A DNA stretch of 64,000 nt from a virus (taxonomy: Duplodnaviria; Heunggongvirae; Uroviricota; Caudoviricetes), in the IMG/VR virus record IMGVR_UViG_3300029705_000018; one strand, 5' to 3'. The notes beneath the pieces are model-generated. The model was not told the origin of the DNA, did not search any database, and worked only from the letters and a program-made list of their open reading frames with translations. The position numbers and the translations under genes are program-made. This document shows, one piece after another, positions 4,270 to 48,324 of the stretch (position 1 is its first letter; the number at the start of each line of letters is the position of its first letter).

Positions 4270-4293
4270 ATTTTATGTCCTCCTCAGATTTGA

Positions 4294-7030: not shown

Positions 7031-7033
7031 AAC

Positions 7034-7309: not shown

Positions 7310-7320
7310 AAAAACTCTCC

Positions 7321-25785: not shown

Positions 25786-25814
25786 TATTATAACATATTT
25801 TTTATAAAAAATCA
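25786..25814 (-). promoter_or_regulatory. Sigma-70 promoter, downstream of terminator hairpin 25826..25851
   Basis: TTGATT-N17-TATAAT on the minus strand. The hairpin is tcccccgga ttttatt ccggggga. Confidence 0.6.
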
Positions 25815-27388: not shown

Positions 27389-28105
27389 TCATTTGGCCTC
27401 CTGGATATACTGCCGAATTTCTTCTCGGTAGTTATAGACAAAAGACGGAACTAACTGTTTTACAGCATAGTCGCCACCCTCCATCTGGAATGCCTGCCGC
27501 ACCAGAGTAGCGCTGATACCCTCATATCGGTCCAGGAATTTGAAGCGAAGTAACCATCTTTCATCCTGTGCGAACCAACCGAGCATGATGCGGGGATCGT
27601 CACTGTAGTAGATGGTCATATCAGAATCCTTGGTCTTGCCGAACATCTTGATGTAAAGGTATCGGCCCCAACCGTGACTGTTGTCGCTTTCATCAGTCAT
27701 ATCATCCAAGGGATAGACATGAATGTGTTTCAGATCTTCGGTAGAAAATTGCTCGTGTAAAGCACCTTCCAGGAGCATCAGACGAAAATCAATGGGCAGA
27801 GGATTGCGCTTGGTGCCAGACTTGTCTGCGGAACCCACGAAAATGTGCAGGTCGCAATGATTTGCGGTGCAATCTTCATAAGCCTTCTTCACCATGTTCA
27901 TATGACCATTATGAAAAGGCTGTGCGCGGAACAGAATTACTCCAACCATATAATCCTCCTTACTTGATTTCCAGTTCTCTTGCTTGTTCGCTAGTGATAC
28001 CGAAGTACTCCTCAAACCCCTCAATGTCAGCGGGGTCGCAGGCACCTGAACAGATACATTTTCCGTCATGAAGCACCCAGTACCACATACCATCGGGATA
28101 CTCAA
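27389..28105 (-). CDS. Nicotinamide/nicotinate mononucleotide adenylyltransferase (NadM/NMNAT-like). The true start is probably the internal MVGVILF.
   Basis: The HxGH nucleotidyltransferase motif FRAQPFHNGHMNMV is present with a Rossmann-like core. Confidence 0.65.
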   Translation of the reverse strand: MSIPMVCGTGCFMTENVSVQVPATPLTLRGLRSTSVSLANKQENWKSSKEDYMVGVILFRAQPFHNGHMNMVKKAYEDCTANHCDLHIFVGSADKSGTKRNPLPIDFRLMLLEGALHEQFSTEDLKHIHVYPLDDMTDESDNSHGWGRYLYIKMFGKTKDSDMTIYYSDDPRIMLGWFAQDERWLLRFKFLDRYEGISATLVRQAFQMEGGDYAVKQLVPSFVYNYREEIRQYIQEAK

Positions 28106-28563
28106 CCAGGTGCTCCATAAGATTGAAAAAGTCTTTCAAATTGGAACAGCCATAGACCGCAACCAGACCTTTTCCGGTAAATTCTTCGGTAAAATAAACA
28201 TACGGATCAAGTACTATACGATCCCTAATTTTGTCAGTAAAAGCTACAATGATGGGGGCATCAATATTTACTGTCATTCTTATCAATCCCTCTCTTTAAT
28301 TGTGTATTTATCCCAACCATATTTGGGAATCATTTTCATAAGTGTTATTGAATCTTTTACGCTAAAAAGTTGACAATGCTCGCAAAAAGTCTTATAAAGA
28401 AAATCTTCTGTTAGAGATAAGACCATATCTTGAGCATCTTCCAGAGAGTCACAAAAACATACAATATCATAGCTGTATCGCTCATCACGATAGACTTTTA
28501 ATCTATTTTTCTCGTAAATAGCATACTTGCACATCTTTTCCCCTCTCTTTACTTTGTATATAT

Positions 28564-28592
28564 ATTATATCATATTTTTTTATAAAAATCAA
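28564..28592 (-). promoter_or_regulatory. Sigma-70 promoter with extended -10, fused to terminator hairpin 28596..28618
   Basis: The minus strand reads gagacccctcattttgaggggtctTTTTGATTTTTATAAAAAAATATGATATAAT. The terminator U-tract runs into the -35 element. Confidence 0.7.
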
Positions 28593-28621
28593 AAAGACCC
28601 CTCAAAATGAGGGGTCTCGTA

Positions 28622-29065
28622 TCACAGTTCGGAAATCAATTCTTTACGCTTTTCCATAAGAATTTCACCAAGCCAGTTTTTACCAGCAATTTCTGCACAT
28701 TTGGGACAGAAGCAGGAACCCCAAGTATTGTCATGCCAAGAGTTGCCTTCAATAAGAATGCAATCATTTGTAGCAATCAACTTACTTGCGAGTTTAGGGT
28801 GCGTATCAAATTTCCGCCCTACGCCAACGCGCATAGCAGTGTATTTGACCTGTTCCCAATCCTCACGCAACTGAACTTGACGGCCCATTCGCTTAGCCTT
28901 ACCCGGAGTTGCGGCGGCCGCAATCTTCTTTCTTTCCTCTTGGTCGAGGGTTTTCATTGCCTGAAAGAAGTGTTCGTTGGTAGGATATTCAATTCCATCA
29001 TAGGTAAAAGGGGCATAATAGAAGTTACTTAGAAAAGCGTATTTTCCATCAAATTCAGTAATCAT
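28622..29065 (-). CDS. NADAR (YbiA-like) domain protein, a putative ADP-ribose N-glycosidase
   Basis: 147 aa. FLSNFYYAPFTYDGIEYPTNEHFFQAMK is the NADAR signature. Confidence 0.7.
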   Translation of the reverse strand: MITEFDGKYAFLSNFYYAPFTYDGIEYPTNEHFFQAMKTLDQEERKKIAAAATPGKAKRMGRQVQLREDWEQVKYTAMRVGVGRKFDTHPKLASKLIATNDCILIEGNSWHDNTWGSCFCPKCAEIAGKNWLGEILMEKRKELISEL

Positions 29066-29074
29066 ACTTCCTCC

Positions 29075-29908
29075 TTAGAAATCAATAAACGGGGTATCTT
29101 CATGGAGGACTTCAAAGCAACCTCCATGTCGATTGGAACTACCTTCCCATTTTCTGGTGCGGGCACGAATATAGGGAATATTCAGCATACGCATTTTATG
29201 AGCATTTCGCTCATGACGCTCTTCAATTAGTCGCAGAGTTTCATAAGAAGGCGTCTTATTGTCCAGAAGATAAGCATCGAGGACTTCATAAGTGAAGCCG
29301 AAATTATCTTCATCGGTTTTACCGGTCATGCCATCGCCAGGAGCCTTATGAACCAGCTCAGCAGGCAGATTCAGAGCATCACCGATAGCCAAAATTTCAC
29401 GAACATAAAAGTCGTAAAAAATGGAGAAATCACCGGCCATATCGCCAAACTTAGTAGTATAGCCGACATACATTTCAGATGCATTGCCAGTATGAACCAC
29501 TCGACCGCCGATCAATGCGGCGATGCCATACAGAGTAGTCATGCGCAGGCGAGCAGGAGTATTAGTGTAGAATACATCATTGCCACCACCGAAATACTCT
29601 TCGGGGATTGCTTCCACCAAAGCATCCATGGTGGAGCCAATATTGACGACAGTATAGGGCATATGCAGATGCTCTACGACTTTGTAAGAATCTGCGATGT
29701 CAGCCTGTTCGCCACAGGGCATCAGAACACCGAAGACATTCTCAGAACCCAAAGCGCGACACAACAGGGCAGCCGCAATTGTAGAATCCTTGCCACCGGA
29801 GATGCCGATAACAGCTTTGGTGGTTTTACCACCATTCTTCACGAAATACTTTTTGATTTCGGTAATCATATACTGGATTTCCAGTTCAGCGTCAAATGCT
29901 CTACCCAT
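29075..29908 (-). CDS. nadE: NH3-dependent NAD+ synthetase
   Basis: 277 aa with the PP-loop GISGGKDSTIAAAL. Confidence 0.85.
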   Translation of the reverse strand: MGRAFDAELEIQYMITEIKKYFVKNGGKTTKAVIGISGGKDSTIAAALLCRALGSENVFGVLMPCGEQADIADSYKVVEHLHMPYTVVNIGSTMDALVEAIPEEYFGGGNDVFYTNTPARLRMTTLYGIAALIGGRVVHTGNASEMYVGYTTKFGDMAGDFSIFYDFYVREILAIGDALNLPAELVHKAPGDGMTGKTDEDNFGFTYEVLDAYLLDNKTPSYETLRLIEERHERNAHKMRMLNIPYIRARTRKWEGSSNRHGGCFEVLHEDTPFIDF

Positions 29909-29910
29909 TT

Positions 29911-30417
29911 TTACTCCTCCAAATAGTAGATATATACTTCATAGTCCTCATCAAGGACTTGCTCGATCATTGTCTTGATGACCTCCCAGTTGCCGCCACC
30001 CAGGCCGCAACCAATATGGGATGGGAAGCCAATTGTTGCGCCTTCTGGAACAAATTCTCGGATATGTCCGAGGCAGCTCCAGAAGCCATCATAAGAAGTG
30101 TATCTGCGGCCATCATAACCATAGTGCTCTTGGGCGAACATATTGATTACAGTATGAGTTTTATCCACCTGGACTAGTTGAATATCGCCTAAAAGCACTT
30201 CGCTGGTCTCGGGACAATGTTCAAAACCACCGCAGTTACGCAGAATATTATCCTCAGTATCATTATACTTCTGGATATATTCGCTGTAAACTACGGGCCA
30301 CTTATCTTTAATTGCCTTAGCGATGCCAGAGCCCATGCGACCCTGGCAATTCACCTGATGGCAGTAATAGTCAACATCTGCATCAAGCAGACTACCTTTT
30401 ACATGGTAAATACTCAT
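29911..30417 (-). CDS. Macro domain protein (binds or hydrolyses ADP-ribose or O-acetyl-ADP-ribose)
   Basis: 168 aa. VDYYCHQVNCQGRMGSGIAKAI and GCGLGGGNW are macro-domain motifs. Confidence 0.7.
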   Translation of the reverse strand: MSIYHVKGSLLDADVDYYCHQVNCQGRMGSGIAKAIKDKWPVVYSEYIQKYNDTEDNILRNCGGFEHCPETSEVLLGDIQLVQVDKTHTVINMFAQEHYGYDGRRYTSYDGFWSCLGHIREFVPEGATIGFPSHIGCGLGGGNWEVIKTMIEQVLDEDYEVYIYYLEE

Positions 30418-32207
30418 TACTTACCCCACAGTCTTTCGCGGATTTCAGCCAGACTCTGTCTATTGGTCAATTTACCATTATAGAACACAGTCTGAAGCAG
30501 ATTCTTTTCGCCCAGAGTATCTTCAAATGCGTGCTCGTCGGTATAGGACTCACCATCCAGAGCAACAACACAGCAACCCTTCTGGCTCTTTTTCCAAGCC
30601 AGAGCTTTAGGCTTCTTGAAGATATTGATACCATTACCAACGCAGTCTTCGGCATAAGTAGCCTTTACAGCAATGCCAAAAGTATCACGAGTATAAGGAC
30701 CAGCATTGGTACCGTTCCACTTACCAGCGAACTGGAGAGTACCTTCATCGTCAGCACAAACCAGAGCCATCATGAACATAGAACCAGCGCCCATAACGAC
30801 ATTATTGGCAGCGTAGCCCTGGGCGGCCAGACGCTTGTAAATTTCATTGGCATAGTCAGGCAGAATGCTGTCGCCGTAGATTGCCTTTAGATGGGGGTCC
30901 AGAACCTTATAGCCCTTTTCATTCACAGTATGACCGACAATCTGGTCCAATGCCCAAACGGTGCCGAGCAGTTCCAGAGAAGGCTGAATTTCTTCCCACT
31001 CAAAAGCATAGTCTTCAACGTAGTAATACTTACGATCAGTCCATGCGCCACGCTCATTAGTCCAGTCAGGATAGACATTCAGAGCGTAGAACTTGTCATT
31101 GAAATGGAAATACAGGACAGTTTCTTCCTCAACACCGCAGTCACGGCAGAAATCATACATCCAGTCCTTAGTGAATTCCTTGTCGGAAAACAGCTTTTCA
31201 GCTTCTTCGTCATCATAAGGAGTCAGCCAGTCAATGGGCTTACCAGCCAGGATTTCGACAGGATTACCGGAATCGCCACGCACCAGAAGAGTACCATCAT
31301 GAGCCATAATTTCTCTTTTGCACTGAGGAAGCAGGTTCATAACCAGATTTTCGTAGTCATAAGAGTCGGAAACCATGGAGAAACTGTGGTGTAGATAAAT
31401 TTCACTCAGCAGGCGCTTGATGTGAGTAATTTCATCACCATCAACGGCGAAGTTAGAACACATGACAGAGTGTTCGGTGGAGATAGCACCGAAGCCGACA
31501 GGCTCATTTTCGATGTTGCAATCATAATGCTTTTCCATCCACATGATTGCGGGAACAGTTGCAGTATTATGGTGGCTCAACAGCCATGCGCCAGAAGCCT
31601 TGATAGCAGATTCAGCGGAGTGCTGACCACGCATAGAGAAATCACCGATCATCTTCCAAGGACTTACAGAAGAGTCGCAGGTTTTTTCAACCCAAGTATT
31701 AACGACCTTGCGGTAACGATAACCGACTTCAGCCGCAATCTGCGTATGCCACATGGAGCAGGACAGCAGAGTTTCGATGGTATTTACCAGCCAGACGAAA
31801 TTGGGATGAGTATTGGAAATCTCAATCTGAGGTACACCAACTTTAGTGCGAGACCCCTCGGGGACAGCACGAATTTCCAGGGGTAGATAACCCAACTCCC
31901 ACAGGTCACGAATCTTACGATCCTCATAAGAACCGGGTCCCATGGTATAGGTCAAAACACGGTTATACTCATACAGAACTTCATCCAGATCACGGTCAAA
32001 GAACCAAGTTCTGAAACCATTGATCAGATATTCGTCAATGAAAGCCTGCAGACCAAAGAAAGTGATATGGTCTACATCATCCAGGCGACTTATTCTGGGA
32101 GTGTAATAGGAAACCATCTTGGTCAGACCCTTGGGATACTGCTCATGGTGAGTAGCTTTATAGAAGTCAATCAGCAGAAGAGGATTGTAATTATCCATAG
32201 TTATCAA
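30417..32207 (-). CDS. Nicotinamide phosphoribosyltransferase family enzyme (Nampt/NadV-like, or the NARP1 Namat-like enzyme) with an insertion of about 100 aa
   Basis: 596 aa. It shares LLIDFYKATHHEQYP, EIRAVPEG, VSDSYD, RGDSGNP and a C-terminal GKLTNRQSLAEIRERL with Nampt. Confidence 0.8.
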   Translation of the reverse strand: MITMDNYNPLLLIDFYKATHHEQYPKGLTKMVSYYTPRISRLDDVDHITFFGLQAFIDEYLINGFRTWFFDRDLDEVLYEYNRVLTYTMGPGSYEDRKIRDLWELGYLPLEIRAVPEGSRTKVGVPQIEISNTHPNFVWLVNTIETLLSCSMWHTQIAAEVGYRYRKVVNTWVEKTCDSSVSPWKMIGDFSMRGQHSAESAIKASGAWLLSHHNTATVPAIMWMEKHYDCNIENEPVGFGAISTEHSVMCSNFAVDGDEITHIKRLLSEIYLHHSFSMVSDSYDYENLVMNLLPQCKREIMAHDGTLLVRGDSGNPVEILAGKPIDWLTPYDDEEAEKLFSDKEFTKDWMYDFCRDCGVEEETVLYFHFNDKFYALNVYPDWTNERGAWTDRKYYYVEDYAFEWEEIQPSLELLGTVWALDQIVGHTVNEKGYKVLDPHLKAIYGDSILPDYANEIYKRLAAQGYAANNVVMGAGSMFMMALVCADDEGTLQFAGKWNGTNAGPYTRDTFGIAVKATYAEDCVGNGINIFKKPKALAWKKSQKGCCVVALDGESYTDEHAFEDTLGEKNLLQTVFYNGKLTNRQSLAEIRERLWGK

Positions 32208-32708
32208 ATTCCTTTCTCAAATCCGCAAACGGAAATTTCAATGTCATTGGGAAATACATCAGCCTGATGTGCTACATAATCGGTAACCGCTTCCATATAA
32301 TTTTCAACTGCGGTTTCAAATTCCTCTTTACCGCAGTCATCTTCGAGACCGACTAATTCAGGCTCTATTGTGAAGAGGTATGTGACGGACACATAAGCAA
32401 CTTTTTCCATTACTTATACCCTCTCTTCTTTCTTAGCTTACGCAGACCTTTGCTTTCCCACTTATTCGGGACGTGTTCTCTGGTCGCCAGCTCAGCCTTG
32501 AGCTGGGCACGGTAGCAGTTCAACTGATCCCAATCTTCGTTCCCCCAACAATGCTGACAACCCCAGGTGTAGGTGCTTCTCAGTTCAGCCAGTAGCTGAC
32601 GAGTATGCATTTTAGTCATTTCTTCGGGAGTGTGGATATTGATATCTTTGAAACCTGTATAACAGTAAAAACTCATTTTTTTTTCACTTCCTTACTTTTT
32701 GTATATAT

Positions 32709-32737
32709 ATTATATCATATTTTTTATAAAAAATCAA
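32709..32737 (-). promoter_or_regulatory. Sigma-70 promoter fused to terminator hairpin 32742..32766
   Basis: TTGATT-N17-TGATATAAT on the minus strand. The hairpin is agtccctctg aacg cagagggact. Confidence 0.65.
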
Positions 32738-32771
32738 AAAAGTCCCTCTGAACGCAGAGGGACTCTCAATA

Positions 32772-33056
32772 TTACTTGATAAATGTTTCGCAGAACGTCT
32801 CATATAAGGATTTTGCGAAAATCCAACAAACTTTGAATACGAACCAAATCATCCAGCCTATCCAGCCAATGACTACAATTCCGGCGATAACTACGCCGAC
32901 AGAAGCAGGAATGACAAGGAATAGAGCTTCGAGAAAAGAGGCTACAAGCCAGATTGCTGCTCCGACTAGGGCAAAGCCAAAAATGGTACAAACCATTGCC
33001 AGACAGGCAAGTAAAAATTTAATCATTGGGAATTTCAATCCTTTCAAAGACCTCAC
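32772..33056 (-). CDS. Small polytopic membrane protein
   Basis: 94 aa and strongly hydrophobic. Confidence 0.3.
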   Translation of the reverse strand: MRSLKGLKFPMIKFLLACLAMVCTIFGFALVGAAIWLVASFLEALFLVIPASVGVVIAGIVVIGWIGWMIWFVFKVCWIFAKSLYETFCETFIK

Positions 33057-33810
33057 AAATATCTTCGGTAAAACGCAATTTTACGGGGAAATAACCTTTG
33101 CGCTCGACCTCATCACGATTGATTATTACGATATTATCAGAGTGGAACCAATCAGGTAAGAAATTTGCGGGAGCGACTGCCAAAGAAGTGCCAACGATAA
33201 TCATAAGGTCAGCTGCAGATACATGAGCCATTGCCATTTGCCACTGAAGACCCGGTAAACTTTCGCCATATAGGGTGATATCGGGGCGGATAGTGAACTC
33301 GCCGCCGCATAGAGGGCACCTCGGCACACCATTTTTATCATCATAGTTGCCATCCATTACATCTTCTGGAATGAATGTCTCACATAAGCAGCCAGGGCAG
33401 TACCAGTCAGCCATGGTGCCATGAATTGTGTCAACTACTTTTGAACCGGCTTTTTCATGGAGTCCGTCAATATTCTGAGTAACCACAGACACAGTTCTTG
33501 CTTGCTGCAGCTCAGAGATTTTTTTATGAGCGATGTTCGGTTCAGCATTGCGAAAATCCATATTATTTCGTAAATACTGGAAGAACCGCTCAGGTTCCAT
33601 TTTGAGGCAGGTGTGGCTCAACATATATTCTGGCTCATCTTCTTCACTGGTATTGTATAAGCCATTATTGCTGCGGAAGTCCGGAATGCCGGAGCCGGTA
33701 GAGATACCAGCTCCGGTCAAAAATACGATACGCTTGGCTCCCGCAATCATTTCATTCAATTGTTTTATGCGTTCGTCAAAGCTTTCCATTTTAGTTATCT
33801 CCTGTTCCAT
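33019..33810 (-). CDS. Sir2-family NAD-dependent deacylase or ADP-ribosyltransferase
   Basis: 263 aa with GAGISTGSGIPDFR, a Zn module CPGC...CPLCGG and the motif VTQNIDGLH. Confidence 0.8.
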   Translation of the reverse strand: MEQEITKMESFDERIKQLNEMIAGAKRIVFLTGAGISTGSGIPDFRSNNGLYNTSEEDEPEYMLSHTCLKMEPERFFQYLRNNMDFRNAEPNIAHKKISELQQARTVSVVTQNIDGLHEKAGSKVVDTIHGTMADWYCPGCLCETFIPEDVMDGNYDDKNGVPRCPLCGGEFTIRPDITLYGESLPGLQWQMAMAHVSAADLMIIVGTSLAVAPANFLPDWFHSDNIVIINRDEVERKGYFPVKLRFTEDICEVFERIEIPND

Positions 33811-34339
33811 TCAGCTGGGCTTCCAGAACGACGTCGCCCTGAGCCATAGCCTTATCCACAGCCATCTTAGCAGACTTCATATCACAACCCTGCTTTTTCA
33901 AGAAAGGCATTACATTCTTTACGATAACGCCCTTATTGCCAGAAGTGATAGAAACAGCATTGCAGATACCCCAGTAATTGACCATCTTGACGATTTCATC
34001 AACATCGTCAATGACCTTGGGAGCATATTCCTCCACAATAGCCAACTTTTCGCGGTATTCAGCCTTGCGGGCCGCATACTTCTCACCGTCGGGGCAGGTA
34101 TCGATCATTTCTTTTACAGTCTTGACATACTTTGTCAATACTTCATCAACCAGTGTATCAGTGATTGCAACACGGGTTTTGTCGGCAGTAGCAGCCTTGT
34201 CAATGGAAGCTACCATATCGGCGATAGTTAGACGACGAAGTTTATTACCCTCTTTTAAAGCTGTCGTCATATCAGCTTTGAGGGTTTCATACTTATCCAT
34301 TGGAGTATGCTCCTTTCTTAGTGAAATATAGTAATCCAA
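33791..34339 (-). CDS. GatB/YqeY-domain protein
   Basis: 182-aa helical protein with a YqeY-like pattern. Confidence 0.4.
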   Translation of the reverse strand: MDYYISLRKEHTPMDKYETLKADMTTALKEGNKLRRLTIADMVASIDKAATADKTRVAITDTLVDEVLTKYVKTVKEMIDTCPDGEKYAARKAEYREKLAIVEEYAPKVIDDVDEIVKMVNYWGICNAVSITSGNKGVIVKNVMPFLKKQGCDMKSAKMAVDKAMAQGDVVLEAQLNGTGDN

Positions 34340-35148
34340 CCGCCCCAGCCAGCACCGTCATAGGGACCATCAATCAGCATCTGGGGGAAAATGGATTCAG
34401 TGGTATAGATATGCTTGATCAGACCGGACTCGGGCAGATCGCCAAGAGTAACAGTTTCTTCCAGGTGGGTCACATACAGACTTACGCTCTTGGCACCTGC
34501 TTCCAGCAAAGCCTTTGCGGAGTGGTAGAAAGTGCCACCTCTGGAGCAAATATCATCAACAATCAGAACATCTTTGTCTTTGATGTTCTCGGCATTGATA
34601 ATATCTAGACCTAAAATCTTGCCAGTAGCCCAGTCTCGCTTTTTCATACCAAAAGCATAAGGTAGAGGGGACTTATCAGAGTAGCGCTTCATTGCGCCCT
34701 CATCGGGGAAGAACAGAACTTCAGCCTTGGAAGCCAGAGTAGCCTTATGAATATAAGGCTCAACACCAGTATCCTCTACTCGATCAAGCAGAGCCAGGCT
34801 CACGTTGCTATGGGCGTCCCGCACCCAAACAATCTTGAAGTTCAGAGAGTTAATAATCTCGCAGAAATACTTCAGAGTAAAGACGTCAGAATCAGACTTT
34901 ACTCGATCCATGCGAGCGTGGGGAATGTAGGGCATATCCAGAACAACATCGGTGTTGCCAAAGTGGCGGTCGATATGACGCTTCACGCAGATTAGAGTGA
35001 AGAGTTCGCTATCGTCTTCATAAAGCCATTCCACCTTGATGGCGCCTCTGTTATCAAACATCTCTTCTGGATTGAGCTTGATAAGCAAAGAGTGATCGGG
35101 GAACATGGACTGACCGCTACGAATAGAAATATTACCTACTCTAATCAT
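34318..35148 (-). CDS. Ribose-phosphate pyrophosphokinase-like enzyme: either a PRPP synthetase or an ADPR-pyrophosphate synthetase of the Adps type
   Basis: 276 aa with the PRTase P-loop VLIVDDICSRGGTF. The Prs fold is present but the N-terminus is divergent. Confidence 0.7.
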   Translation of the reverse strand: MIRVGNISIRSGQSMFPDHSLLIKLNPEEMFDNRGAIKVEWLYEDDSELFTLICVKRHIDRHFGNTDVVLDMPYIPHARMDRVKSDSDVFTLKYFCEIINSLNFKIVWVRDAHSNVSLALLDRVEDTGVEPYIHKATLASKAEVLFFPDEGAMKRYSDKSPLPYAFGMKKRDWATGKILGLDIINAENIKDKDVLIVDDICSRGGTFYHSAKALLEAGAKSVSLYVTHLEETVTLGDLPESGLIKHIYTTESIFPQMLIDGPYDGAGWGGWITIFH

Positions 35149-35160
35149 TGGCTATCCTCC

Positions 35161-35769
35161 TTAGATAATGTTGATCTGGCACAGCTTCATTGCTTCCAGG
35201 GCGGTCTTGTGGGACTCAGGAGTCACGCAAGCGCAGCAGTCAGCAACGACATTGACAGGAACTTCGGGCAGAGTTGCCTTACACAGAATTGCATTGGACA
35301 GGACGCAGATGCCAGTGCATACGCCCATCAGAGTGATTTCCTCGATTTCAAAGCGGTCATTCATATCATACAGAATATTCTGCAGTTCAACAGAGCCAAA
35401 AGTAGGCTTCTTGACGCGGATGGGGTTCTCGTCATAAACGGGATATGCATCATAACCGGACATATAGCGATTTTCGCCCTGGGCATGATGAATCCAGGCT
35501 TCAAAGACTTCATCGACGATGCCATAGCCAGCGGTGCCTTCGATGCAATGAGGAACGGGCAGGTTCTTACCTTCCAGAGTATTCATATAGTCATCGGTAT
35601 GAGTATCCTTGGTGAAGATGATAGCGGTATTGGGATCAGCAAGTTGATGAATGGTTTCCGCAACCAGAGGAACGATAGCCTGGGCTTCGGGAGTACCCAG
35701 TGCGCCATCGATAAAGTCCCTCTGCATATCAACGACAATGACTACCTTAATCTTTTCCATATTTTTCAA
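35161..35769 (-). CDS. Isochorismatase-family cysteine hydrolase, a putative nicotinamidase (PncA-like)
   Basis: 202 aa. VVIVVDMQRDF, a later Lys and the motif GVCTGICV give a D-K-C triad arrangement. Confidence 0.65.
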   Translation of the reverse strand: MKNMEKIKVVIVVDMQRDFIDGALGTPEAQAIVPLVAETIHQLADPNTAIIFTKDTHTDDYMNTLEGKNLPVPHCIEGTAGYGIVDEVFEAWIHHAQGENRYMSGYDAYPVYDENPIRVKKPTFGSVELQNILYDMNDRFEIEEITLMGVCTGICVLSNAILCKATLPEVPVNVVADCCACVTPESHKTALEAMKLCQINII

Positions 35770-35794
35770 TTCCTTCCTTATTCTTTATACATAT

Positions 35795-35823
35795 ATTATA
35801 ACATATTTTTTTTGAAAAATCAA
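35795..35823 (-). promoter_or_regulatory. Sigma-70 promoter fused to terminator hairpin 35827..35849
   Basis: TTGATT-N17-TATAAT on the minus strand. The hairpin is aggctctct tgttc agagagcct. Confidence 0.6.
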
Positions 35824-35855
35824 AAAAGGCTCTCTTGTTCAGAGAGCCTTTTCTT

Positions 35856-36506
35856 TTAGTTCATGCGCCAGTAGTTAGTGTTGCGGTTTTCCTCAAATGT
35901 GTCGCGCAGTAAAATCTCCTTGGAAGACCAAGTCAGATATACGAAGTCTGCGGTCATGGGGCGAGGAACGCCATTATGCCAGCTCTTTAGTTCGGTCAAA
36001 GCGATGTCATACAGCTTAGCCAGCACGGGGTTATCATCGGAATAACCCATCCACTGCTTAGCCTGCTGACATACAGCCTGGATTTCTCCGGGATAAGCTC
36101 TGTTGTCAACACGGTTCAGAATACACCAGACGATTGCGCGCAGGTCAGAATCCTTGTGGTCAGGCTTGTACATACCATACATAACCCGTGCGATCCACTC
36201 GGCTTCCAGTTCAATCTGTTCTACATCGCCACCATATTCGTAATATTTCTCAATCGCAGCGATTTCAGATTCATATTCATCTCGCAGCTCAATTCGCAGA
36301 GCAATCATGCCCTCCTGGTGGAGTTCATTCAGTTCTTTGATTTGATTTTTATACTTGACTCGCTGGGAAATTGAAGTAATCATGATGGTGATTACGAGAA
36401 TCAAGACATAAACTGTGATTCTCTGAATCTGGGCGATTTGACGACGACGGCGCTTAGTAGAATTACTCTTCTTAGTGTACTTACCCATAGTATCCTCTCC
36501 ATTCAT
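35856..36506 (-). CDS. Membrane-anchored coiled-coil protein with a C-terminal SleB-like cell-wall hydrolase domain
   Basis: 216 aa. It has an N-terminal transmembrane segment YVLILVITIMITSI. The segment RAIVWCILNRVDNRAYPGEIQAVCQQAKQW resembles the Hydrolase_2 (SleB) core. Confidence 0.45.
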   Translation of the reverse strand: MNGEDTMGKYTKKSNSTKRRRRQIAQIQRITVYVLILVITIMITSISQRVKYKNQIKELNELHQEGMIALRIELRDEYESEIAAIEKYYEYGGDVEQIELEAEWIARVMYGMYKPDHKDSDLRAIVWCILNRVDNRAYPGEIQAVCQQAKQWMGYSDDNPVLAKLYDIALTELKSWHNGVPRPMTADFVYLTWSSKEILLRDTFEENRNTNYWRMN

Positions 36507-36759
36507 ATCTCTTATTCTTTACATATATATTATAACATATTTTTTGTAAAAAATCAAAAAGGACACTTTTTAGGTGTCCTTTGGGAATAATAAACGGGTT
36601 CCGCAACGGAAACAATAACGCTTCTCATCGTCCCATATGACAGAGCCACCGGGCAGACAGTCAGGTTCAAGCATTCCGCAATTAGAACATATTCGATTAC
36701 CTTCTGGAGTCCATTTCCACACTCCCACTTTAGCGGGAGGTGGAGGAGGAGGTGGAGCT

Positions 36760-37416
36760 TTAAGAATGTTCATTCTTATCTTCCCTCTTATAGATATACG
36801 CCCATCGGGTGTATTCATCATAACACTGAACTTTGATAGCCTCATTGAGAGTGCTAATATTCGTGCGGAGAATAAATAAAATGTCCGCCAAGTCAGCATA
36901 TCTCTCCTTTGCCCGTTTCAATACGGGGAGCAACAGAACCTCTGTTTCTGCGACATTTTTACCCATGGCATCTTTGGTAAAGGATATGGGCATATCGCCT
37001 AGGTTGTTGTATCTGTCAAGAGCCTTACAAATCAAAGCTTCCCGGCAGTCAAGGAGTTCATTGAAATAACGGCATTTTGTTTCAATTTTATCTAAGTCAG
37101 TATCGAACTTAGTGATAGTCATATACTGAACCGCACGCTTAACAGTATCGTTTACCGGCAGATACTCGGGCCGCACACCGCAATCTTCTACGGTATCATG
37201 AAGTAGGATGGTAGCAATGATATTATCATCGCGCAAGCCAAGAGCCACGGCATAGCAGGCCATTGACAGGGGATGAACAATATAAGGCGTTCCATCTTTG
37301 CGAGTCTGCCCACTGTGATGTTCACGGGCGAACTGCAAAGCGGTGATGGACTGCTTCATATTTGCGCCGATTAGATAACCTCTGAGATAGGTATACATTT
37401 TTTCAACGTTAGCCAT
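36760..37416 (-). CDS. HD-domain phosphohydrolase, RelA/SpoT-type, a putative (p)ppGpp hydrolase
   Basis: 218 aa. YIVHPLSMACYAVALGL...LLHDTVEDCG is the SpoT/Mesh1-type HD motif. Confidence 0.55.
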   Translation of the reverse strand: MANVEKMYTYLRGYLIGANMKQSITALQFAREHHSGQTRKDGTPYIVHPLSMACYAVALGLRDDNIIATILLHDTVEDCGVRPEYLPVNDTVKRAVQYMTITKFDTDLDKIETKCRYFNELLDCREALICKALDRYNNLGDMPISFTKDAMGKNVAETEVLLLPVLKRAKERYADLADILFILRTNISTLNEAIKVQCYDEYTRWAYIYKREDKNEHS

Positions 37417-37709
37417 TGTGCTACCTCCTTACTGAGCAACGATATGGGGTAAATCAATTAGAGCATTTTCGCCGTCTCCGACCTTTATCCACACAGCATC
37501 TAATTGGCGAATCCGAAATACATATATAGAGCCTTTTGGCACGATGAATTTCGGGTAGTTGTATAGATAGGTGGCATACTCCTCCATCAGGTCGAAAACC
37601 ATATACTCGGGGGATTGTAGTAGATTCATTTTTCTTCACTCTTCCTCTTGGTACTGTGCCTGTGGGGAGGGGATGGGCGGCCGCCCAGGCAGCGACCGCC
37701 AGTGCTGGA

Positions 37710-39173
37710 TTACTCGCCTGCTTCATCTAAGCCATCAGCCTCTTCCATATCAGGTGCTTCGGCAGTGTCTTTGATAATGCCTTCCAAAACCTTGAAATTG
37801 AAGTTCTTATGCTTATAAGCAGTAAAAGTAGGACGATTGATTACACGAACTACGACACCCTCACGGATATGAGTGGGGTCGATAGGCTCGGGACCATCGA
37901 AGAACTGTTCAGCCTTTTCCAGTACGAACTGGCCTGCGTCAGTCAGCTCGCAAGAAGTTCCGGTGAAAACTTCCTCGTCGGGGATAAAACCGGCCCAGTG
38001 GACAGGCACAGTCTTGACGCCCATGTACATACAACGGTAACGCATAAAGTCGGGAGTGTACTCCACAACCTGGCCATCTTCGTTGGTCATGGTCATACGG
38101 TATACGTAGATATCGCTCTGAGGCTTGGACACGCTGAATGCGGTATCGGGGTTAGAAGGATCGGCAACTCCAGCAACCGCAACTCCCTTTGGATCGCAGC
38201 CGTAAGAGAAGGTAGTGACCTTACCATACTGCTTTACGAAAGCCTTATCCTTCAACTTCTCATTGGAGCAGGTGCTCATGATAGGAGTACCATCATGAGT
38301 AAAGCCAACGATTTCGTAGTAGATAGTTTCACCCTTCCACAGCTTACCCTTGAAGAAGTCATGGTACTGCTTACGGAACTCATTAGAGCCGTAGAAACCA
38401 CCATCGAAGCTATCCAGGATAGTACGACGAGTGCCGGTTACGATGTCGTAATCAAACACAGGAGTGCAGTGCTTTTCCGCAAACTTCTGAGCCTTTGCCG
38501 CAGGCAGAATCTTACCCAAGAACTTGTGGAAAATGTTATTGGTAGTATAAGAATGTCCATCAAAAGACTGGACAAATGCAGTACGGCCAGAAGTGCCATG
38601 TAGCTTACGGGTGATTTCGATGTAGTCACCGGGCTTGAATTCGCTCAGATGGTAAACCAACTGCTCAGTATCCTTGTGTTCGAAGAAAGTAGGTGCCATA
38701 TTCTTACGCTTTAGCTTCTGGCCAGCGTGACGCTTCACACCATTACCCTTATTCTTGCCACGAGGGATATATTTCTGACAGATTTCATGACCGTTTAGCA
38801 CGGTGATAGGAGTGCCAGGAGTCAGTTCATCCAGCTTAGCGCCGGTGTAAGCCAGACACTCGATAGGCAGGAACAGACCATCGGACTGCTCACCGCGAAG
38901 CTTGATTGCGCGCACATTGCGCTTGGCGGGGTCTAGGTATCCGCCGGAGATATTCTTGCCGAACTCATCATAGACTGCCAGCAAGCCGTTCTTTTCACAG
39001 AACTCCATAGACAACTGACCGTCTACGGGGAAGTAAACACCCAGCTGTCCTTCAAAATACTTATCCTTTGCAACACAGACGGTGTTCTCAAAGCAGGTTG
39101 CTAGAACCAGATTATCTGCGTTGCCGTGCTCACGCACATTCATTAGATTGGTGATGTATCCACAGTAAGACAT
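37710..39173 (-). CDS. ATP-dependent RNA ligase (Rnl2-like nucleotidyltransferase)
   Basis: 487 aa with motif I ITRKLHGTSGR (KxHGT, as in T4 Rnl2) and downstream NTase motifs. Confidence 0.5.
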   Translation of the reverse strand: MSYCGYITNLMNVREHGNADNLVLATCFENTVCVAKDKYFEGQLGVYFPVDGQLSMEFCEKNGLLAVYDEFGKNISGGYLDPAKRNVRAIKLRGEQSDGLFLPIECLAYTGAKLDELTPGTPITVLNGHEICQKYIPRGKNKGNGVKRHAGQKLKRKNMAPTFFEHKDTEQLVYHLSEFKPGDYIEITRKLHGTSGRTAFVQSFDGHSYTTNNIFHKFLGKILPAAKAQKFAEKHCTPVFDYDIVTGTRRTILDSFDGGFYGSNEFRKQYHDFFKGKLWKGETIYYEIVGFTHDGTPIMSTCSNEKLKDKAFVKQYGKVTTFSYGCDPKGVAVAGVADPSNPDTAFSVSKPQSDIYVYRMTMTNEDGQVVEYTPDFMRYRCMYMGVKTVPVHWAGFIPDEEVFTGTSCELTDAGQFVLEKAEQFFDGPEPIDPTHIREGVVVRVINRPTFTAYKHKNFNFKVLEGIIKDTAEAPDMEEADGLDEAGE

Positions 39174-39460: not shown

Positions 39461-40372
39461 TTACTTTTCACCACTTTCACTCTTGGCAACCATTGTGATT
39501 GCGCCCTCGGGATTATATTCCCAATAGCAGTTATATCGGCACTTACCGGTCTGAGGAGCAGACTGGATTGCGCTGATAACCTTCTTCATCTGCTCTTCCT
39601 TCTTGGGGGAGATATTGCGAGCGATATACTTGACAATCCACAGAGCAGCGATGTTCCAGTCAGGGAAATACAGGGTTGCACCATTGTCCTTATCGATAGC
39701 CTTGACTACCCAGTTATCCTTATTTGCGCCGGTGGTTGCCGCCCACTTCTTTTCACGCTCCCACTGAATGAATAGGGGATGAACCTTGCTTCCGCGAGGG
39801 AAGGGCTTGGGCTGAGAGGGCATGGACAGGATAGTTTCCTTATCCTCCGGCTTACACTTCTCATAAAGATGCTCAACAACGGTGCAGAGCATCCGAGCGT
39901 CTTCCAGAGCATCGTGCTTCTGGACCAGATCCTTTTCATCCTGGACCAGCATATAGACTTTCCGCAGAGCCAGATCATTCTTGGCAACGAAGAACTGTTT
40001 CACAGTAGAAGCATAGTCGATCAAATTACCGGCGAGTGCCTGTGCAAAGATGATAGCCTTGGGGATGGTCATTTTGCGAGCAGTCGCGTGGAGGAAAGAG
40101 CTGTCGCAGTTGCCATAAACATAATACTCGGGAGGCTCTTCATCAAAGTTAGAAACGACGAAATCGTAAAAATCCAGAAATGCCTGATCGGCGCTGGGAG
40201 CATTTTCCAGCATTTCATTGGTAATGCCAGTCAGCTCGGTGATAAACTTATCAACCTTTTTCTTACCGGGATGAACCAGAGTTGAGAATGTGCTACCATT
40301 TTCGGCTACACAACCAATGCTGATAATGCGGTTAGAGAAACGGGTTGCTTCAAAGTCCATGAAACATTTCAT
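39461..40372 (-). CDS. DEDDh 3'-5' exonuclease (DnaQ-like) with a C-terminal extension
   Basis: 303 aa with Exo I FMDFEAT, Exo II YGNCDSSFL and Exo III HDALEDARML. Confidence 0.7.
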   Translation of the reverse strand: MKCFMDFEATRFSNRIISIGCVAENGSTFSTLVHPGKKKVDKFITELTGITNEMLENAPSADQAFLDFYDFVVSNFDEEPPEYYVYGNCDSSFLHATARKMTIPKAIIFAQALAGNLIDYASTVKQFFVAKNDLALRKVYMLVQDEKDLVQKHDALEDARMLCTVVEHLYEKCKPEDKETILSMPSQPKPFPRGSKVHPLFIQWEREKKWAATTGANKDNWVVKAIDKDNGATLYFPDWNIAALWIVKYIARNISPKKEEQMKKVISAIQSAPQTGKCRYNCYWEYNPEGAITMVAKSESGEK

Positions 40373-40411
40373 TTTTTATCAATTCCTTTCTTTTCTTACC
40401 TTTGTATATAT

Positions 40412-40440
40412 ATTATATCATATTTTTTTATAAAAATCAA
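40412..40440 (-). promoter_or_regulatory. Sigma-70 promoter with extended -10
   Basis: TTGATT-N17-TGATATAAT on the minus strand. Confidence 0.65.
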
Positions 40441-40993: not shown

Positions 40994-41899
40994 TTATGCC
41001 ATAGCCTCCCTCAGCATTCTCGCACGAGCGGGATGCCGCAACTTGCGAATTGCCTTATTTTCGATCTGACGAATACGTTCCTTGGTAATGCCGTAGACCT
41101 TACCAACTTCTTCTAGGGTCATTGCCTTCTCGTGGTCAATGCCGAAACGCATCTTCATAATCTCACCTTCACGAGTGGGAAGAGTATCCAGAACCGCACG
41201 GACAATCTGGCTGTTAGCTTCCTTGACAAGGTTGCCGTAGCCACTTTCAGCATTATGGTCTGCTACCAGGTCACCAACACTGGTTTCACCGTCTTCATCA
41301 ACGGCCACATCCAGAGAAGATACTGCCTGAGAAATGTCCAGAATGGTCTGAACCTTTTCCAAATCTTCATTCAGATACTTGGCGATTTCTTCATCGGTCG
41401 GCTGACGATGATTTTTCAGAAGTAGTTCATTGGTTGCCTTGCGGATTTTGCCCAGAAGCTCAACCATATTTGCGGGAATGCGAATGGTGCGAGACTGGTC
41501 ACCGAGCGCACGAGAAATAGACTGGCGAATCCAGTAGGTAGCATAGGTAGAGAATCTCCAACCCTTAGTACCATCATACTTCTGAGCGGCCTTTATCAGA
41601 CCGAGATTGCCCTCCTGGATGAGATCAAGCAGGGGCAGACCGCAACCATAATATCTCTTTGCGATGGGAACAACCAGAAGTAGATTACAGCTTACCAGTT
41701 CATTGATTGCGTCCTGGTCGCCCTTGAGCGCCTTTACGCTCAATTCTTTCTCCTGGTCAAAATTCAAACGGGGGTGATTACCGATAGACTTCAGATAGGC
41801 TTTTACACCATCGAGGACTACCACATCGGCAACAGTAGCCTCGAAATCATTGAGAGCTTCCTGGGCCTCATCTTCCATAATAATTACATTTTCTTCCAT
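40994..41899 (-). CDS. Sigma-70-family RNA polymerase sigma factor (regions 2 to 4)
   Basis: 301 aa. Region 2 reads RYYGCGLPLLDLIQEGNLGLIKAAQKYDGTKGWRFSTYATYWIRQSISRAL. Region 4 reads MTLEEVGKVYGITKERIRQIENKAIRKLRHP. Confidence 0.85.
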   Translation of the reverse strand: MEENVIIMEDEAQEALNDFEATVADVVVLDGVKAYLKSIGNHPRLNFDQEKELSVKALKGDQDAINELVSCNLLLVVPIAKRYYGCGLPLLDLIQEGNLGLIKAAQKYDGTKGWRFSTYATYWIRQSISRALGDQSRTIRIPANMVELLGKIRKATNELLLKNHRQPTDEEIAKYLNEDLEKVQTILDISQAVSSLDVAVDEDGETSVGDLVADHNAESGYGNLVKEANSQIVRAVLDTLPTREGEIMKMRFGIDHEKAMTLEEVGKVYGITKERIRQIENKAIRKLRHPARARMLREAMA

Positions 41900-41937
41900 T
41901 ATTATGCTCCTCCCTTACTTTCTCATTTTCTATATAT

Positions 41938-41966
41938 ATTATATCATATTTTTTTATAAAAATCAA
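41938..41966 (-). promoter_or_regulatory. Sigma-70 promoter with extended -10 for the sigma factor gene, fused to terminator hairpin 41969..41993
   Basis: TTGATT-N17-TGATATAAT on the minus strand. The hairpin is aagcccttcc gaat gggaagggctt. Confidence 0.65.
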
Positions 41967-43253: not shown

Positions 43254-43646
43254 TTACTCATCTACTCCTTCTGGAAATGTATAGTCTTCGGGGTGAATAG
43301 GTTCACCTTCGGGAATACCTTTATGTAATGTTTCATTATAGACGAGGGAGTATTTCACACTACCATCATCATATTCGTGAGTAATTAGGTAACAACGAAT
43401 AGTGCTACCTAAATTATCTTTGTATTGTTCGTGTACGCCCCATTCGTCAATCCATCGAGTTTTACAAGGGCCATATGCTACCCATACATAACGATAACCC
43501 CAATTATCGATGGAGCAGTCATATACGATAGCATCAACCGCTTCAGCAGTTGTATTTACTACATTTGCGGTCCGTAGTTCACAACCGCATAGAGTCAATA
43601 GTAGACAGAGCGCCAGTAGGAGAGTGATTAGTCTTTTCATAATCAC
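43254..43646 (-). CDS. Lipoprotein
   Basis: 130 aa with signal MIMKRLITLLLALCLLLTLCGC. Confidence 0.4.
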   Translation of the reverse strand: MIMKRLITLLLALCLLLTLCGCELRTANVVNTTAEAVDAIVYDCSIDNWGYRYVWVAYGPCKTRWIDEWGVHEQYKDNLGSTIRCYLITHEYDDGSVKYSLVYNETLHKGIPEGEPIHPEDYTFPEGVDE

Positions 43647-44425
43647 TCACCCACATAAATCACGTCGTCAACATACTTGCGGTCCTCGCCTTTGAGAATG
43701 GGCATTTCATAGTCAACGCCGATGTCGCGTCTCCATGCGGTGCCACGCTTCCAGCGAGTGGGGTAATTACCCCAGATAATTCCTTTATCCACTTCCAGCA
43801 TGGTCTTGATGTTCTGGCAGCACATACCCTGCAGGACAGCATGAGAATAATTTGCCTGACCGACCATCTGAATGGAGTTGCGGGTGGCGTCCAACTGGCG
43901 CCAATAGACCAAGTTACAGGCTTCTTCCTTGGGAATGTTGAAGCATCGGGAGTCAAACATTGCACCTTTTTCAGCGGCTCGAGAATAAGTATCAATCAGC
44001 TTGATCTCTTCATCAGTAATGAAGATTGGTTCAGTGCTGTCGATGTGCTTCTGAACTTCCTCCTGGAAATATTTATTGAAAGCCATGGTTGCCATAGAAG
44101 CAGAGATGGAACACATCTTCTGAATTTCATAATCAAACCAGGCGGAGCTGGTGAGTTTCTGGTAGTCAATCAGCAGGAGAGTGATTTCATCGGACTGCTG
44201 ATAAGCAAAAACACATCCTTGAATATTTTTCGCTAAATATTCCATAGTTCTTACCATAGCATTTCCTAATACCTCATCAAAAGGTTTTTGAAATCCTCTG
44301 GTAAAAGTATGAAATGCTTTTCCATCTATACGAATTGCCACAGGCATCCGTCTTACGAGGCGATGTTTAGGCACCGCCTCGTAATAAGTTTTCATTCTAT
44401 TTCCGAGATCATCATGAACTGCCAT
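43643..44425 (-). CDS. Thg1-like protein (tRNA-His guanylyltransferase / 3'-5' polymerase family)
   Basis: 260 aa. RMPVAIRIDGKAFHTFTRGFQKPFD is the Thg1/TLP N-terminal palm signature. Confidence 0.7.
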   Translation of the reverse strand: MAVHDDLGNRMKTYYEAVPKHRLVRRMPVAIRIDGKAFHTFTRGFQKPFDEVLGNAMVRTMEYLAKNIQGCVFAYQQSDEITLLLIDYQKLTSSAWFDYEIQKMCSISASMATMAFNKYFQEEVQKHIDSTEPIFITDEEIKLIDTYSRAAEKGAMFDSRCFNIPKEEACNLVYWRQLDATRNSIQMVGQANYSHAVLQGMCCQNIKTMLEVDKGIIWGNYPTRWKRGTAWRRDIGVDYEMPILKGEDRKYVDDVIYVGE

Positions 44426-46626: not shown

Positions 46627-47481
46627 TTAATCGTTAGCTTCTTTACTTTTAGCTTCATTTTCTAAGTCCCACCATTCCATATAAGGACTCTTGGGCAGCC
46701 ACCACTCAAGACAGTAAGTTTCTTTGTCGTACCACCGATTCCAGATGTTCTCCAAGTCCTCATAGTCGTTATAGAACTGTTCTACGCAAGGCCGTTCAAT
46801 CCGGTCGGCATGATAATGACCAAAGCACCAGCATTTCCAAGTGAAGTTATCCTTCAACTTATCCATCCAGACTTCCATGGTCTTATCGACCATAGACTGG
46901 TCAATGCCGCCGATAAACAAGTCCCGAGGCTCCCAAGAGATAGGACAAGTGTGAGAGAATACAAAGTCAAACTCTTTTCCGGTAGTATTGTTCATAATCG
47001 CCCGCATTTCAGCTTCAGTAAGCTGTTCATCGGGGAACCAGCCAGGATGTTCCTTTGTACCTTCAACCCGCTTCAACCGATACCACTTGTCAACAGAATA
47101 AGCACCGCCAACAACCAAGCACTTATGATTGTTGAGAGTGTAGACATTACCATCAACAAAATACCGAATATTGGGGAAGTCTTTATCTACATAGACTGCG
47201 CCATCCACATTGGGATCATATTCTACTTTATAACCCAAGTTTTCAGGCCGCTCTTCATGATTACCCCGAACGCAGTAGAAGGTATAGCCATATACGCAGG
47301 ACAGTTTCTTATATTTTTTATCAGTTTTATTTAACCAAAAATTTAGACCACTATCGCCTAAAATAATGATTGCAGTTTCAGTGGGAGTAAAATTGGGCAT
47401 ATTCCGATTTATATTACCTGCCCGATTGACTACTCCCATGCCACCGTGACAGTCTCCTGTAATTATAAAATTTTTTATCAT
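46627..47481 (-). CDS. Calcineurin-like metallophosphoesterase
   Basis: 284 aa with GDCHGG, GDSG, GNHE and GHYH motifs. Confidence 0.65.
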   Translation of the reverse strand: MIKNFIITGDCHGGMGVVNRAGNINRNMPNFTPTETAIIILGDSGLNFWLNKTDKKYKKLSCVYGYTFYCVRGNHEERPENLGYKVEYDPNVDGAVYVDKDFPNIRYFVDGNVYTLNNHKCLVVGGAYSVDKWYRLKRVEGTKEHPGWFPDEQLTEAEMRAIMNNTTGKEFDFVFSHTCPISWEPRDLFIGGIDQSMVDKTMEVWMDKLKDNFTWKCWCFGHYHADRIERPCVEQFYNDYEDLENIWNRWYDKETYCLEWWLPKSPYMEWWDLENEAKSKEAND

Positions 47482-48213: not shown

Positions 48214-48295
48214 ATAATCAACTCCTTCTATAATAATTGAAAAAAGTCGGGGTTCAATTATTATTCTTTGTCCATATTTTCATTTCTTTATATAT

Positions 48296-48324
48296 ATTAT
48301 AACATATTTTTTTATAAAAATCAA
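48296..48324 (-). promoter_or_regulatory. Sigma-70 promoter fused to terminator hairpin 48329..48347
   Basis: TTGATT-N17-TATAAT on the minus strand. The hairpin is gggagcc ttgat ggctccc. Confidence 0.6.

Follow-up and report, generated by a model that had tools for sequence, protein, structure and literature searches.

A putative stand-alone alarmone hydrolase encoded by an uncultured jumbo phage lineage, probably of animal guts

We propose that a 218-aa open reading frame (ORF) at positions 36760..37416 (minus strand) of a 64,000-nt stretch of viral DNA (IMG/VR record IMGVR_UViG_3300029705_000018; the whole stretch is called the window below) encodes an intact, stand-alone small alarmone hydrolase (SAH) of an uncultured jumbo phage, which would act as an alarmone 3'-pyrophosphohydrolase against growth arrest of the infected cell. 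We put the probability of this reading, in which function is predicted from sequence, at about 0.75. It is built on the ORF itself, on its family, motifs and fold, on the lack of a synthetase domain or partner toxin, and on conservation in a phage lineage. An earlier note on this DNA had proposed a phage (p)ppGpp hydrolase here; the ORF that it named is real and its coordinates are exact, with the strand, which the note left unstated, being minus.

Family assignment and predicted fold

As judged from sequence profiles and a modelled structure, the SAH protein is a hydrolase domain of the RelA/SpoT homologue (RSH) superfamily. Pfam HD_4 (PF13328) matched at E = 8e-9 (35.8 bits against a gathering cut-off of 27.2), and the generic Pfam HD model (PF01966) stayed below threshold (E = 0.0095). 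The NCBIfam model spoT_relA matched at E = 4e-15 through its N-terminal hydrolase part only, the long-RSH models of that collection (spoT_relA and the SpoT equivalog) being aligned at positions 1-61/687 and 5-85/702 only. The top PHROG, phrog_15275 (E = 1e-21), has no annotated function. A phmmer search of the PDB found Rel of T. thermophilus at E = 3e-14 and returned only Rel/SpoT catalytic fragments, MESH1, other SAHs, a (p)ppApp hydrolase and Lmo0812 (4yf1), a structure deposited without a functional name.

A family profile made from 66 homologues, with identities down to about 30%, matched Rel of B. subtilis at 2e-29 and Rel of T. thermophilus at 2e-27, followed by MESH1 (3nr1, 4e-21, and 5vxa, 5e-20, both weaker than the long Rel domains), the SAH of P. 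aeruginosa (PaSAH, 7e-14) and an Aph-type (p)ppApp hydrolase (2e-12). All 23 significant PDB matches of this profile were RSH hydrolases, SAHs, the (p)ppApp hydrolase or Lmo0812, and no dNTPase, YpgQ, phosphodiesterase (PDE) or other generic HD enzyme was found among them. Homologues are numerous, with more than 1000 in a 90%-identity cluster database and 8534 clusters at 50% identity with E<=1e-3, and PF13328 is carried by each of the 120 homologues listed.

The AlphaFold2 model of the protein is confident (predicted local distance difference test score 95.7, predicted template modelling score 0.92) and all-helical, ending in a 44-residue C-terminal helix (residues 174-217) that follows the HD_4 domain. 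When it was compared with the PDB by Foldseek, the first 47 matches were all Rel, SpoT, SAH, Mesh1, Aph or Lmo0812, and the 25 with E<=1e-3, all at probability 1.00, were RSH hydrolases, SAHs or Aph; YpgQ and PDE5 appeared only at E>1 and with a probability of at most 0.35. Among viral predicted structures, it matched proteins of jumbo phages and giant viruses that carry the annotation (p)ppGpp hydrolase or HD protein. The SpoT/Mesh1-type, hydrolase-only family suggested in the earlier note is borne out by the profiles, by motif conservation and by the predicted fold, and the best match to a generic HD enzyme or dNTPase that the note had named as grounds for giving it up was seen neither with PDB profiles nor with Foldseek.

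Motifs and catalytic residues

The full RSH motif set can be aligned to Rel (R39-K40, Y45/H48, H73-D74/E77-D78, K131/D134-R135/N138 and E157-T158). Along the minus strand, HD1 (QTRK, residues 37-40, 37297..37308) contains the invariant R39 and is aligned to RK in the first of Rel's hydrolase motifs, and HD2 (PYIVHPL, residues 44-50, 37267..37287) contains H48, a putative metal ligand, and Y45, which is at least 90% conserved. HD3 (LLHDTVED, residues 71-78, 37183..37206) would supply two more metal ligands, H73-D74, and the catalytic pair E77-D78. HD4 (ICKALDRYNN, residues 129-138, 37003..37032) aligns with KLADRLHN of Rel, and HD5/6 (NVAETEVLLLPVL, residues 154-166, 36919..36957) with NETLEIFAPL of B. 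subtilis Rel. The two motifs on which the earlier note had relied are thus where it placed them, YIVHPLSMA at residues 45-53 and LLHDTVED in HD3.

In the alignment of 66 sequences, R39, H48, H73, D74, E77, K131 and D134 are invariant, while H34, Y45, P49, D78, Y117, R135, N138, E157, T158 and P164 are conserved in at least 90%. The roles of these residues as metal ligands, catalytic Glu-Asp pair and nucleotide contacts we take to be those established in Rel and Mesh1 structures. All catalytic residues are kept, and the protein is therefore not a dead domain of the RelA kind; most likely, to go by its sequence, it is a catalytically intact hydrolase domain.

Stand-alone architecture

No synthetase (RelA_SpoT, PF04607), TGS or ACT domain was found in the SAH protein, for which Pfam gave HD_4 and the weak HD match only. 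About 50 ORFs of the window, among them all neighbours of the SAH gene and all but one of the ORFs of at least 170 aa, were scanned against Pfam, and none matched the PF04607 synthetase domain that would mark a small alarmone synthetase with toxic action (toxSAS). The gene is surrounded by a 66-aa ORF, an RNA ligase, a zinc-ribbon ORF and a SleB-like gene; no co-oriented toxSAS adjoins it, and no partner gene is kept across related loci. Because it consists of a single domain, has no toxSAS match in these ORFs and has no conserved neighbour, we regard it, on sequence grounds, as an orphan stand-alone SAH and not as a type IV antitoxin. A conserved partner (the zinc-ribbon protein, the upstream small ORF or a toxSAS) was considered and rejected, as the neighbours differ between context types.

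Relatives at 29-44% identity occur as fusions to NUDIX plus histidine phosphatase domains, to NUDIX alone or, commonly and in proteins of ~280 aa, to an XRE-type helix-turn-helix (HTH), and also as tandem double SAHs (fusion and tandem proteins P0141, P0177, P0135, P0145 and P0136, none of them in the window). A nucleotide substrate would fit, because of the fusions to NUDIX and histidine-phosphatase domains. The context of the HTH-SAH fusion P0135 contains no toxSAS beside it, the next gene being an nSTAND-like NTPase.

Start codon and flanking small ORFs

The SAH gene starts with ATG, and homologues share the N-terminus of its product, MANVEKMYTYLRGY, in support of this start. A strong Shine-Dalgarno motif, AAGGAGG (37424..37430, minus), lies 7 nt 5' of the ATG and overlaps the TAA of the preceding 66-aa ORF (37429..37629, minus); the 20-mer upstream of the start reads CTCAGTAAGGAGGTAGCACA. 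This 66-aa ORF, directly upstream of the SAH gene, has a 33% match in two of the related loci (denoted here by L and a number), L011 and L016. Downstream, a 67-aa zinc-ribbon ORF (CxxC...CxxC; 36570..36773, minus), conserved in L011/L016 only, has a start that overlaps the SAH stop by 14 nt.

Transcription unit and promoter class

The SAH gene is predicted to be transcribed from a promoter at 40412..40440 (minus; TTGATT-17-TATAAT with a TG extended -10) as the fifth gene of a six-gene unit, in the order DEDD/RNase_T exonuclease, orf94, RNA ligase, orf66, SAH and zinc-ribbon ORF. The first gene (39461..40372, minus) encodes a DEDD/RNase_T-family 3'-5' exonuclease, and the RNA ligase (37710..39173, minus), with which the SAH would be co-transcribed, is DRB0094-like, with a PHA02142 OB fold, an RNA_ligase domain and a match to phrog_968. 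A predicted intrinsic terminator (36558..36582, minus; 9-bp stem and T-run) ends the unit after the zinc-ribbon ORF, and the next promoter (36529-36557) follows directly.

About 16 near-identical promoters are found on the minus strand of the window, with the form TTGATT-N17-TATAAT and the extended -10 TATG[T/A]TATAATATAT; the motif was matched 20 times, where chance alone would give 0.57. Examples are at 25783-25797, 35791-35805, 36525-36539, 40408-40422, 41934-41948 and 48292-48306. Those examined around the SAH gene each directly follow a hairpin and T-run terminator, which gives the region a cassette-like layout, and the same promoter-terminator pairs are present in L002 and L011. Two arrangements were rejected: co-transcription of the SAH gene with the NAD+ genes further downstream, from which it is separated by terminator-promoter pairs, and an obligate SAH-RNA ligase operon, since in L002/L003 the SAH gene has a promoter and a terminator of its own.

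Between the SAH unit and the first of these NAD+ genes, PncA, lies a self-contained cassette, which L002 and L011 lack despite their synteny, with a SleB-like (Hydrolase_2) cell-wall-hydrolase-domain gene (35856-36506, minus; promoter 36529-36557, terminator 35822-35854). Its product has an N-terminal basic or transmembrane segment, and translation probably begins in reality at the ATG at 36488, behind the Shine-Dalgarno sequence GGAGAGGA. A full-length sigma-70 family factor (40994-41899, minus; regions 1.2, 2, 3 and 4), 71-75% conserved in L002 and L011, has a promoter of the same type upstream. Candidate readers of the promoter class are sigma-A of the host and the sigma factor that the phage itself encodes.

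Phage lineage, host and genomic contexts

The SAH gene is encoded by a phage genome, as indicated by the phage genes of the window, its one-strand layout and the IMG/VR relatives. The window has a GC content of 40%, every called gene lies on the minus strand apart from a few short ORFs, and the phage genes include DnaB, NAD-dependent DNA ligase, two topoisomerase II subunits, PhoH, Sak4 (PHROG matches were obtained for all of these), thymidylate synthase and sigma-70; structural genes were not found inside the 64 kb. A DNA search with 15 kb around the SAH gene gave no near-identical GenBank phage, and the best protein matches in catalogued phages are at 28-31% identity. Hundreds of homologues share 59-100% identity with the protein, all of them from metagenomes, on contigs of up to 254 kb; on IMG/VR, relatives sit on viral contigs of 47-402 kb. 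The window belongs to an uncultured jumbo phage lineage whose contigs span 90-402 kb and which is probably of animal guts; it agrees with the 'NAD-jumbo phages' published from that habitat, for which no alarmone hydrolase is mentioned (PMC11662467).

A scan of cellular genomes found SAH relatives on only four contigs of metagenome-assembled genomes (MAGs), in bins assigned to Bacteroidales, Lachnospiraceae and Clostridia, and the window contains no tRNA genes that could serve as a clue to the host. Strong Shine-Dalgarno motifs precede 34 of the 57 window genes, compared with 4.8% at random positions; from these motifs and from the TTGATT-17-TATAAT promoters, the host is probably a Shine-Dalgarno-using, Firmicutes-like bacterium.

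On viral contigs of 90-402 kb the protein persists at 59-100% identity while its neighbours change. L011/L016 (76% identity; 402-kb and 177-kb contigs) have the same six-gene SAH unit followed by the NAD+ genes. In L002/L003 (75% identity) the gene order is kept, with the SAH gene under its own signals. Other relatives (69-75% identity) have it among small ORFs, and in L005, L006, L012 and L013 it comes after a Band_7 gene. As read from these arrangements, the SAH gene is a mobile cassette of one promoter class, and the genes around it hint at an auxiliary or counter-defence theme in common, not at an obligate pathway.

Small zinc-ribbon proteins that start MLTILKPCPFCxGxAKRK are encoded directly upstream of the SAH gene in L006 (9634-9843), L012 (9754-9960) and L004 (866-1171), loci where neither RNA ligase nor NAD genes adjoin it. 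We presume that they resemble Lar-like restriction alleviation proteins.

Proposed function and alternative readings

We infer the metal, the chemistry, the substrates, the timing of expression and the biological role as follows. By homology, the SAH would be a Mn2+-dependent 3'-pyrophosphohydrolase, with H48, H73, D74 and D134 as putative metal ligands, E77/D78 as the activators of water and R39 stacked on the purine. It would remove the 3'-diphosphate from (p)ppGpp, would very probably accept (p)ppApp as well, and probably also tRNA 3'-ends pyrophosphorylated by toxic alarmone synthetases; NADPH completes the list of candidate substrates. Transcribed from one of several near-identical strong sigma-70-type promoters, which would drive neighbouring auxiliary cassettes too, the enzyme would spare the infected cell a growth arrest mediated by alarmones, imposed either by the stringent response or by abortive infection of the toxSAS/CapRel type. 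The alarmone synthetase toxins CapRel, FaRel and PhRel are established anti-phage effectors, to which SAHs of phages are an obvious antidote. Such an anti-alarmone or toxin-antitoxin role would, by analogy, be the one shown experimentally for other phage SAHs, and the idea is not new. To our knowledge, none of the phage SAHs has been demonstrated at work in a real infection.

Several points weigh against this reading. The function of the window SAH and its close relatives is read from homology alone, with an identity of only about 20-29% to every characterised enzyme; the physiological substrate is unreadable from sequence, because SAHs are promiscuous and take NADPH too; expression timing is deduced solely from promoter-like sequences; and the MAG bins settle neither the host nor its toxSAS/CapRel-type defences.

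The alternative that survives best, which we consider possible but distinctly less probable, is that the main substrate in vivo is tRNA 3'-CCA pyrophosphorylated by toxSAS of the CapRel, FaRel2 or PhRel type, the SAH being the de-pyrophosphorylating arm of phage RNA repair. The window carries an RNA-repair-like set of genes (43643-44425, 37710-39173, 39461-40372, 24037-24582, 23382-24062, 24858-25586 and 46627-47481, all minus): a Thg1-family 3'-5' nucleotidyltransferase, the DRB0094/PHA02142-type RNA ligase, the DEDD exonuclease, an AAA_33 kinase resembling polynucleotide kinase (PNK) and three calcineurin-like phosphoesterases. Their presence suggests that the phage may repair tRNA or RNA damage from host defence nucleases. 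In favour of a tRNA substrate, the SAH gene shares one predicted unit with the exonuclease and the RNA ligase in the window and in L011/L016, with the Thg1, kinase and metallophosphoesterase genes nearby; the very distant Klebsiella phage K64-1 also has an SAH homologue near an RNA ligase; and the SAH of Salmonella phage SSU5 is reported to remove the FaRel2 tRNA modification (PMC11245113). Against it, the SAH gene of L002/L003 has its own promoter and terminator, and no RNA ligase was found within 10 kb of the gene in L001, L004-L007, L012-L015 and L017. It is also compatible with alarmone hydrolysis, as tested SAHs do both. We would extend it only tentatively to a combined counter-defence island, in which gut jumbo phages might repair tRNAs disabled by toxSAS/CapRel beside NAD+ reconstitution, by means of an exonuclease-RNA ligase-SAH operon with Thg1, PNK-like kinase and phosphoesterases nearby.

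In K64-1 (L025, NC_027399), the SAH homologue gp590 (3971-4588), annotated 'phosphohydrolase', lies ~2.3 kb upstream of the RNA ligase gp598 (6841-7986) and ~2.6 kb downstream of a nucleotidyltransferase, a second, independent case of SAH-RNA ligase proximity.

Less likely still is a Mesh1-like NADP(H) 2'-phosphatase, or an enzyme of some other phosphorylated ADP-ribose/NAD derivative, that would feed the adjoining NAD+ salvage island (27389-35760, minus). Past the SleB-like cassette, a new promoter serves genes for a PncA-like nicotinamidase, a divergent Prs, YqeY and a CobB-type Sir2 deacylase; then come a 593-aa NAPRT/Nampt-like protein, a DarG-like Macro protein, NadE, NADAR and an archaeal-type NMNAT. 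To judge from its genes, the island covers every step between nicotinamide and NAD+ by the deamidated (Preiss-Handler-type) route, with a supply of phosphoribosyl pyrophosphate. It is conserved in L011/L016 and belongs to the type reported for gut NAD-jumbo phages (PMC11662467); it differs from NARP1, NARP2 and NARP3. The Macro gene beside a phosphoribosyltransferase recalls Adpp of NARP1-AP. The position of the SAH gene just upstream of these genes in the window and in L011/L016 speaks for such a substrate, as do the PncA, Prs, YqeY and Sir2 genes that alone follow it in L002/L003, the PncA-like and NadE genes 2-5 kb downstream of it in L017 (59% identity), and the clear homology to MESH1 (4e-21), since Mesh1 and a bacterial SAH hydrolyse NADPH (PMC9765508). 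However, one or two terminator-promoter pairs separate the SAH gene from the NAD genes, and L001, L004-L007 and L012-L015 have none of the window NAD genes within 10 kb save weak YqeY matches, ~9 kb away, in L001, L012 and L013. Moreover, the protein is nearer to long Rel/SpoT hydrolase domains than to Mesh1, and the NAD-jumbo phage paper lists no such enzyme (PMC11662467).

We give almost no weight to a generic HD phosphohydrolase (dNTPase, nucleotidase or phosphodiesterase) unrelated to alarmones: the weak sub-threshold Pfam HD match (E = 0.0095) and the bare label 'phosphohydrolase' given to homologues in several phage records are outweighed by the lack of any significant dNTPase, YpgQ or PDE match by sequence, by the first such match by fold coming only at E>1, and by the presence of all RSH-specific motifs beyond the HD dyad (R39-K40, E77-D78, K131xxDRxxN138 and E157-T158). 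On these matches and motifs, this candidate is effectively refuted. Equally improbable is a catalytically dead domain or a type IV antitoxin paired with a toxSAS that the phage carries, for although RelA has a pseudo-hydrolase domain and SAH antitoxins exist (ATfaRel; PMC7229694), the catalytic residues are invariant or at least 90% conserved among the 66 homologues, no synthetase-domain protein is adjacent or among the ~50 scanned ORFs, and no partner gene is conserved across contexts.

An alarmone 3'-pyrophosphohydrolase acting against growth arrest hence remains the reading that we prefer. A divergent, strongly conserved SAH clade forms a stable part of an uncultured jumbo-phage lineage, probably from animal guts, and in some members of the lineage the gene sits among RNA-repair and NAD+-reconstitution cassettes. 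The window SAH is a reasonable candidate for work on toxSAS neutralisation and substrate range, and could serve as a marker for counter-defence islands.

Other genes of the window

An 833-aa homologue of the Major Vault Protein (MVP) is encoded at 51528-54029 (minus), with Pfam matches to MVP_shoulder (8e-22) and Vault_3; phmmer aligned its residues 320-785 with rat and human MVP structures at E = 1e-25. A full-text literature search on major vault protein and jumbo phages together gave nothing relevant. A phage-encoded vault-shell-like protein looks unusual and may deserve more attention than the SAH. The window also encodes a 510-aa and a 314-aa SPFH/Band_7 protein (21363-22895 and 25857-26801, minus). 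The shoulder domain of the MVP-like protein is itself SPFH-related, and it is homologues of the 314-aa Band_7 protein that are encoded just upstream of the SAH gene in L005, L006, L012 and L013.

Comparison with known hydrolases

The hydrolase domains of long RSH enzymes (Rel of B. subtilis, S. aureus, T. thermophilus and S. equisimilis; SpoT of A. baumannii) are the best profile matches of the window SAH (2e-29 to 4e-26) and also its top Foldseek matches. The alignment runs from residue ~5 to ~176, includes the helix before HD1, and all motifs are common to both. The synthetase, TGS and ACT/RRM domains of long RSH enzymes are absent from the window SAH, which should therefore neither synthesise (p)ppGpp nor be subject to ribosome-coupled or allosteric control.

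Mesh1/HDDC3 and XccSAH are homologous single-domain SAHs (profile E = 4e-21, TM-score about 0.55-0.66) that are likewise orphans. Both also hydrolyse NADPH (PMC9765508), acting as NADPH phosphatases. The window SAH is nearer to the long RSH domains than to Mesh1. PaSAH (6yvc/6z3n), RelH of C. glutamicum (7qoc/7qod) and the SAH of L. levettii (7qoe), which hydrolyse (p)ppGpp and (p)ppApp, share the fold (target-normalised TM-score 0.63-0.77, root-mean-square deviation 3-4 A) at an identity of 19-24% and with a weaker profile E of 1e-12 to 1e-14. The Aph1-type (p)ppApp hydrolase of Bacteroides caccae (7smg; PMC10083569; E = 2e-12) is shorter, at 149 aa, and is matched over ~94 profile positions in its metal-binding half, while the window SAH carries the full RSH motif set. 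At such divergence, substrate specificity is not reliably predicted from sequence (PMC12846349).

The closest parallels in biology are other phage SAHs. Those of the Salmonella phages PVP-SE1 (PbcSpo) and SSU5 (PaSpo) neutralise all tested toxSAS, and it was proposed that incoming phages bypass alarmone defence through SAHs (PMC7229694); PaSpo is a routine detoxifier of CapRel and FaRel2 (PMC9712102; PMC11245113) and is said to remove the tRNA modification that FaRel2 installs (PMC11245113). Like the window SAH, PaSpo and PbcSpo are phage-encoded, single-domain RSH hydrolases of ~210-220 aa with no adjacent toxSAS, with the HD, ED and DxxxN motifs in common and, by analogy, the same proposed role against alarmones and toxSAS. 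SSU5_099 (PaSpo) is 29% identical to the window SAH over 176 aa (hhalign probability 98%), which places the two in one superfamily but probably in different subfamilies; 11 SAH subfamilies have been named, PaSpo, PbcSpo and Mesh1 among them. SSU5 and PVP-SE1 are enterobacterial phages, whereas the carrier of the window SAH is an uncultured jumbo phage with a probably Firmicutes-like host, and the window SAH has an extra long C-terminal helix. SAHs of phages have been known and tested before and are annotated as a matter of routine, and the window SAH is a divergent, well-conserved further member, a solid but ordinary find that leaves current understanding of this family of phage enzymes unchanged.

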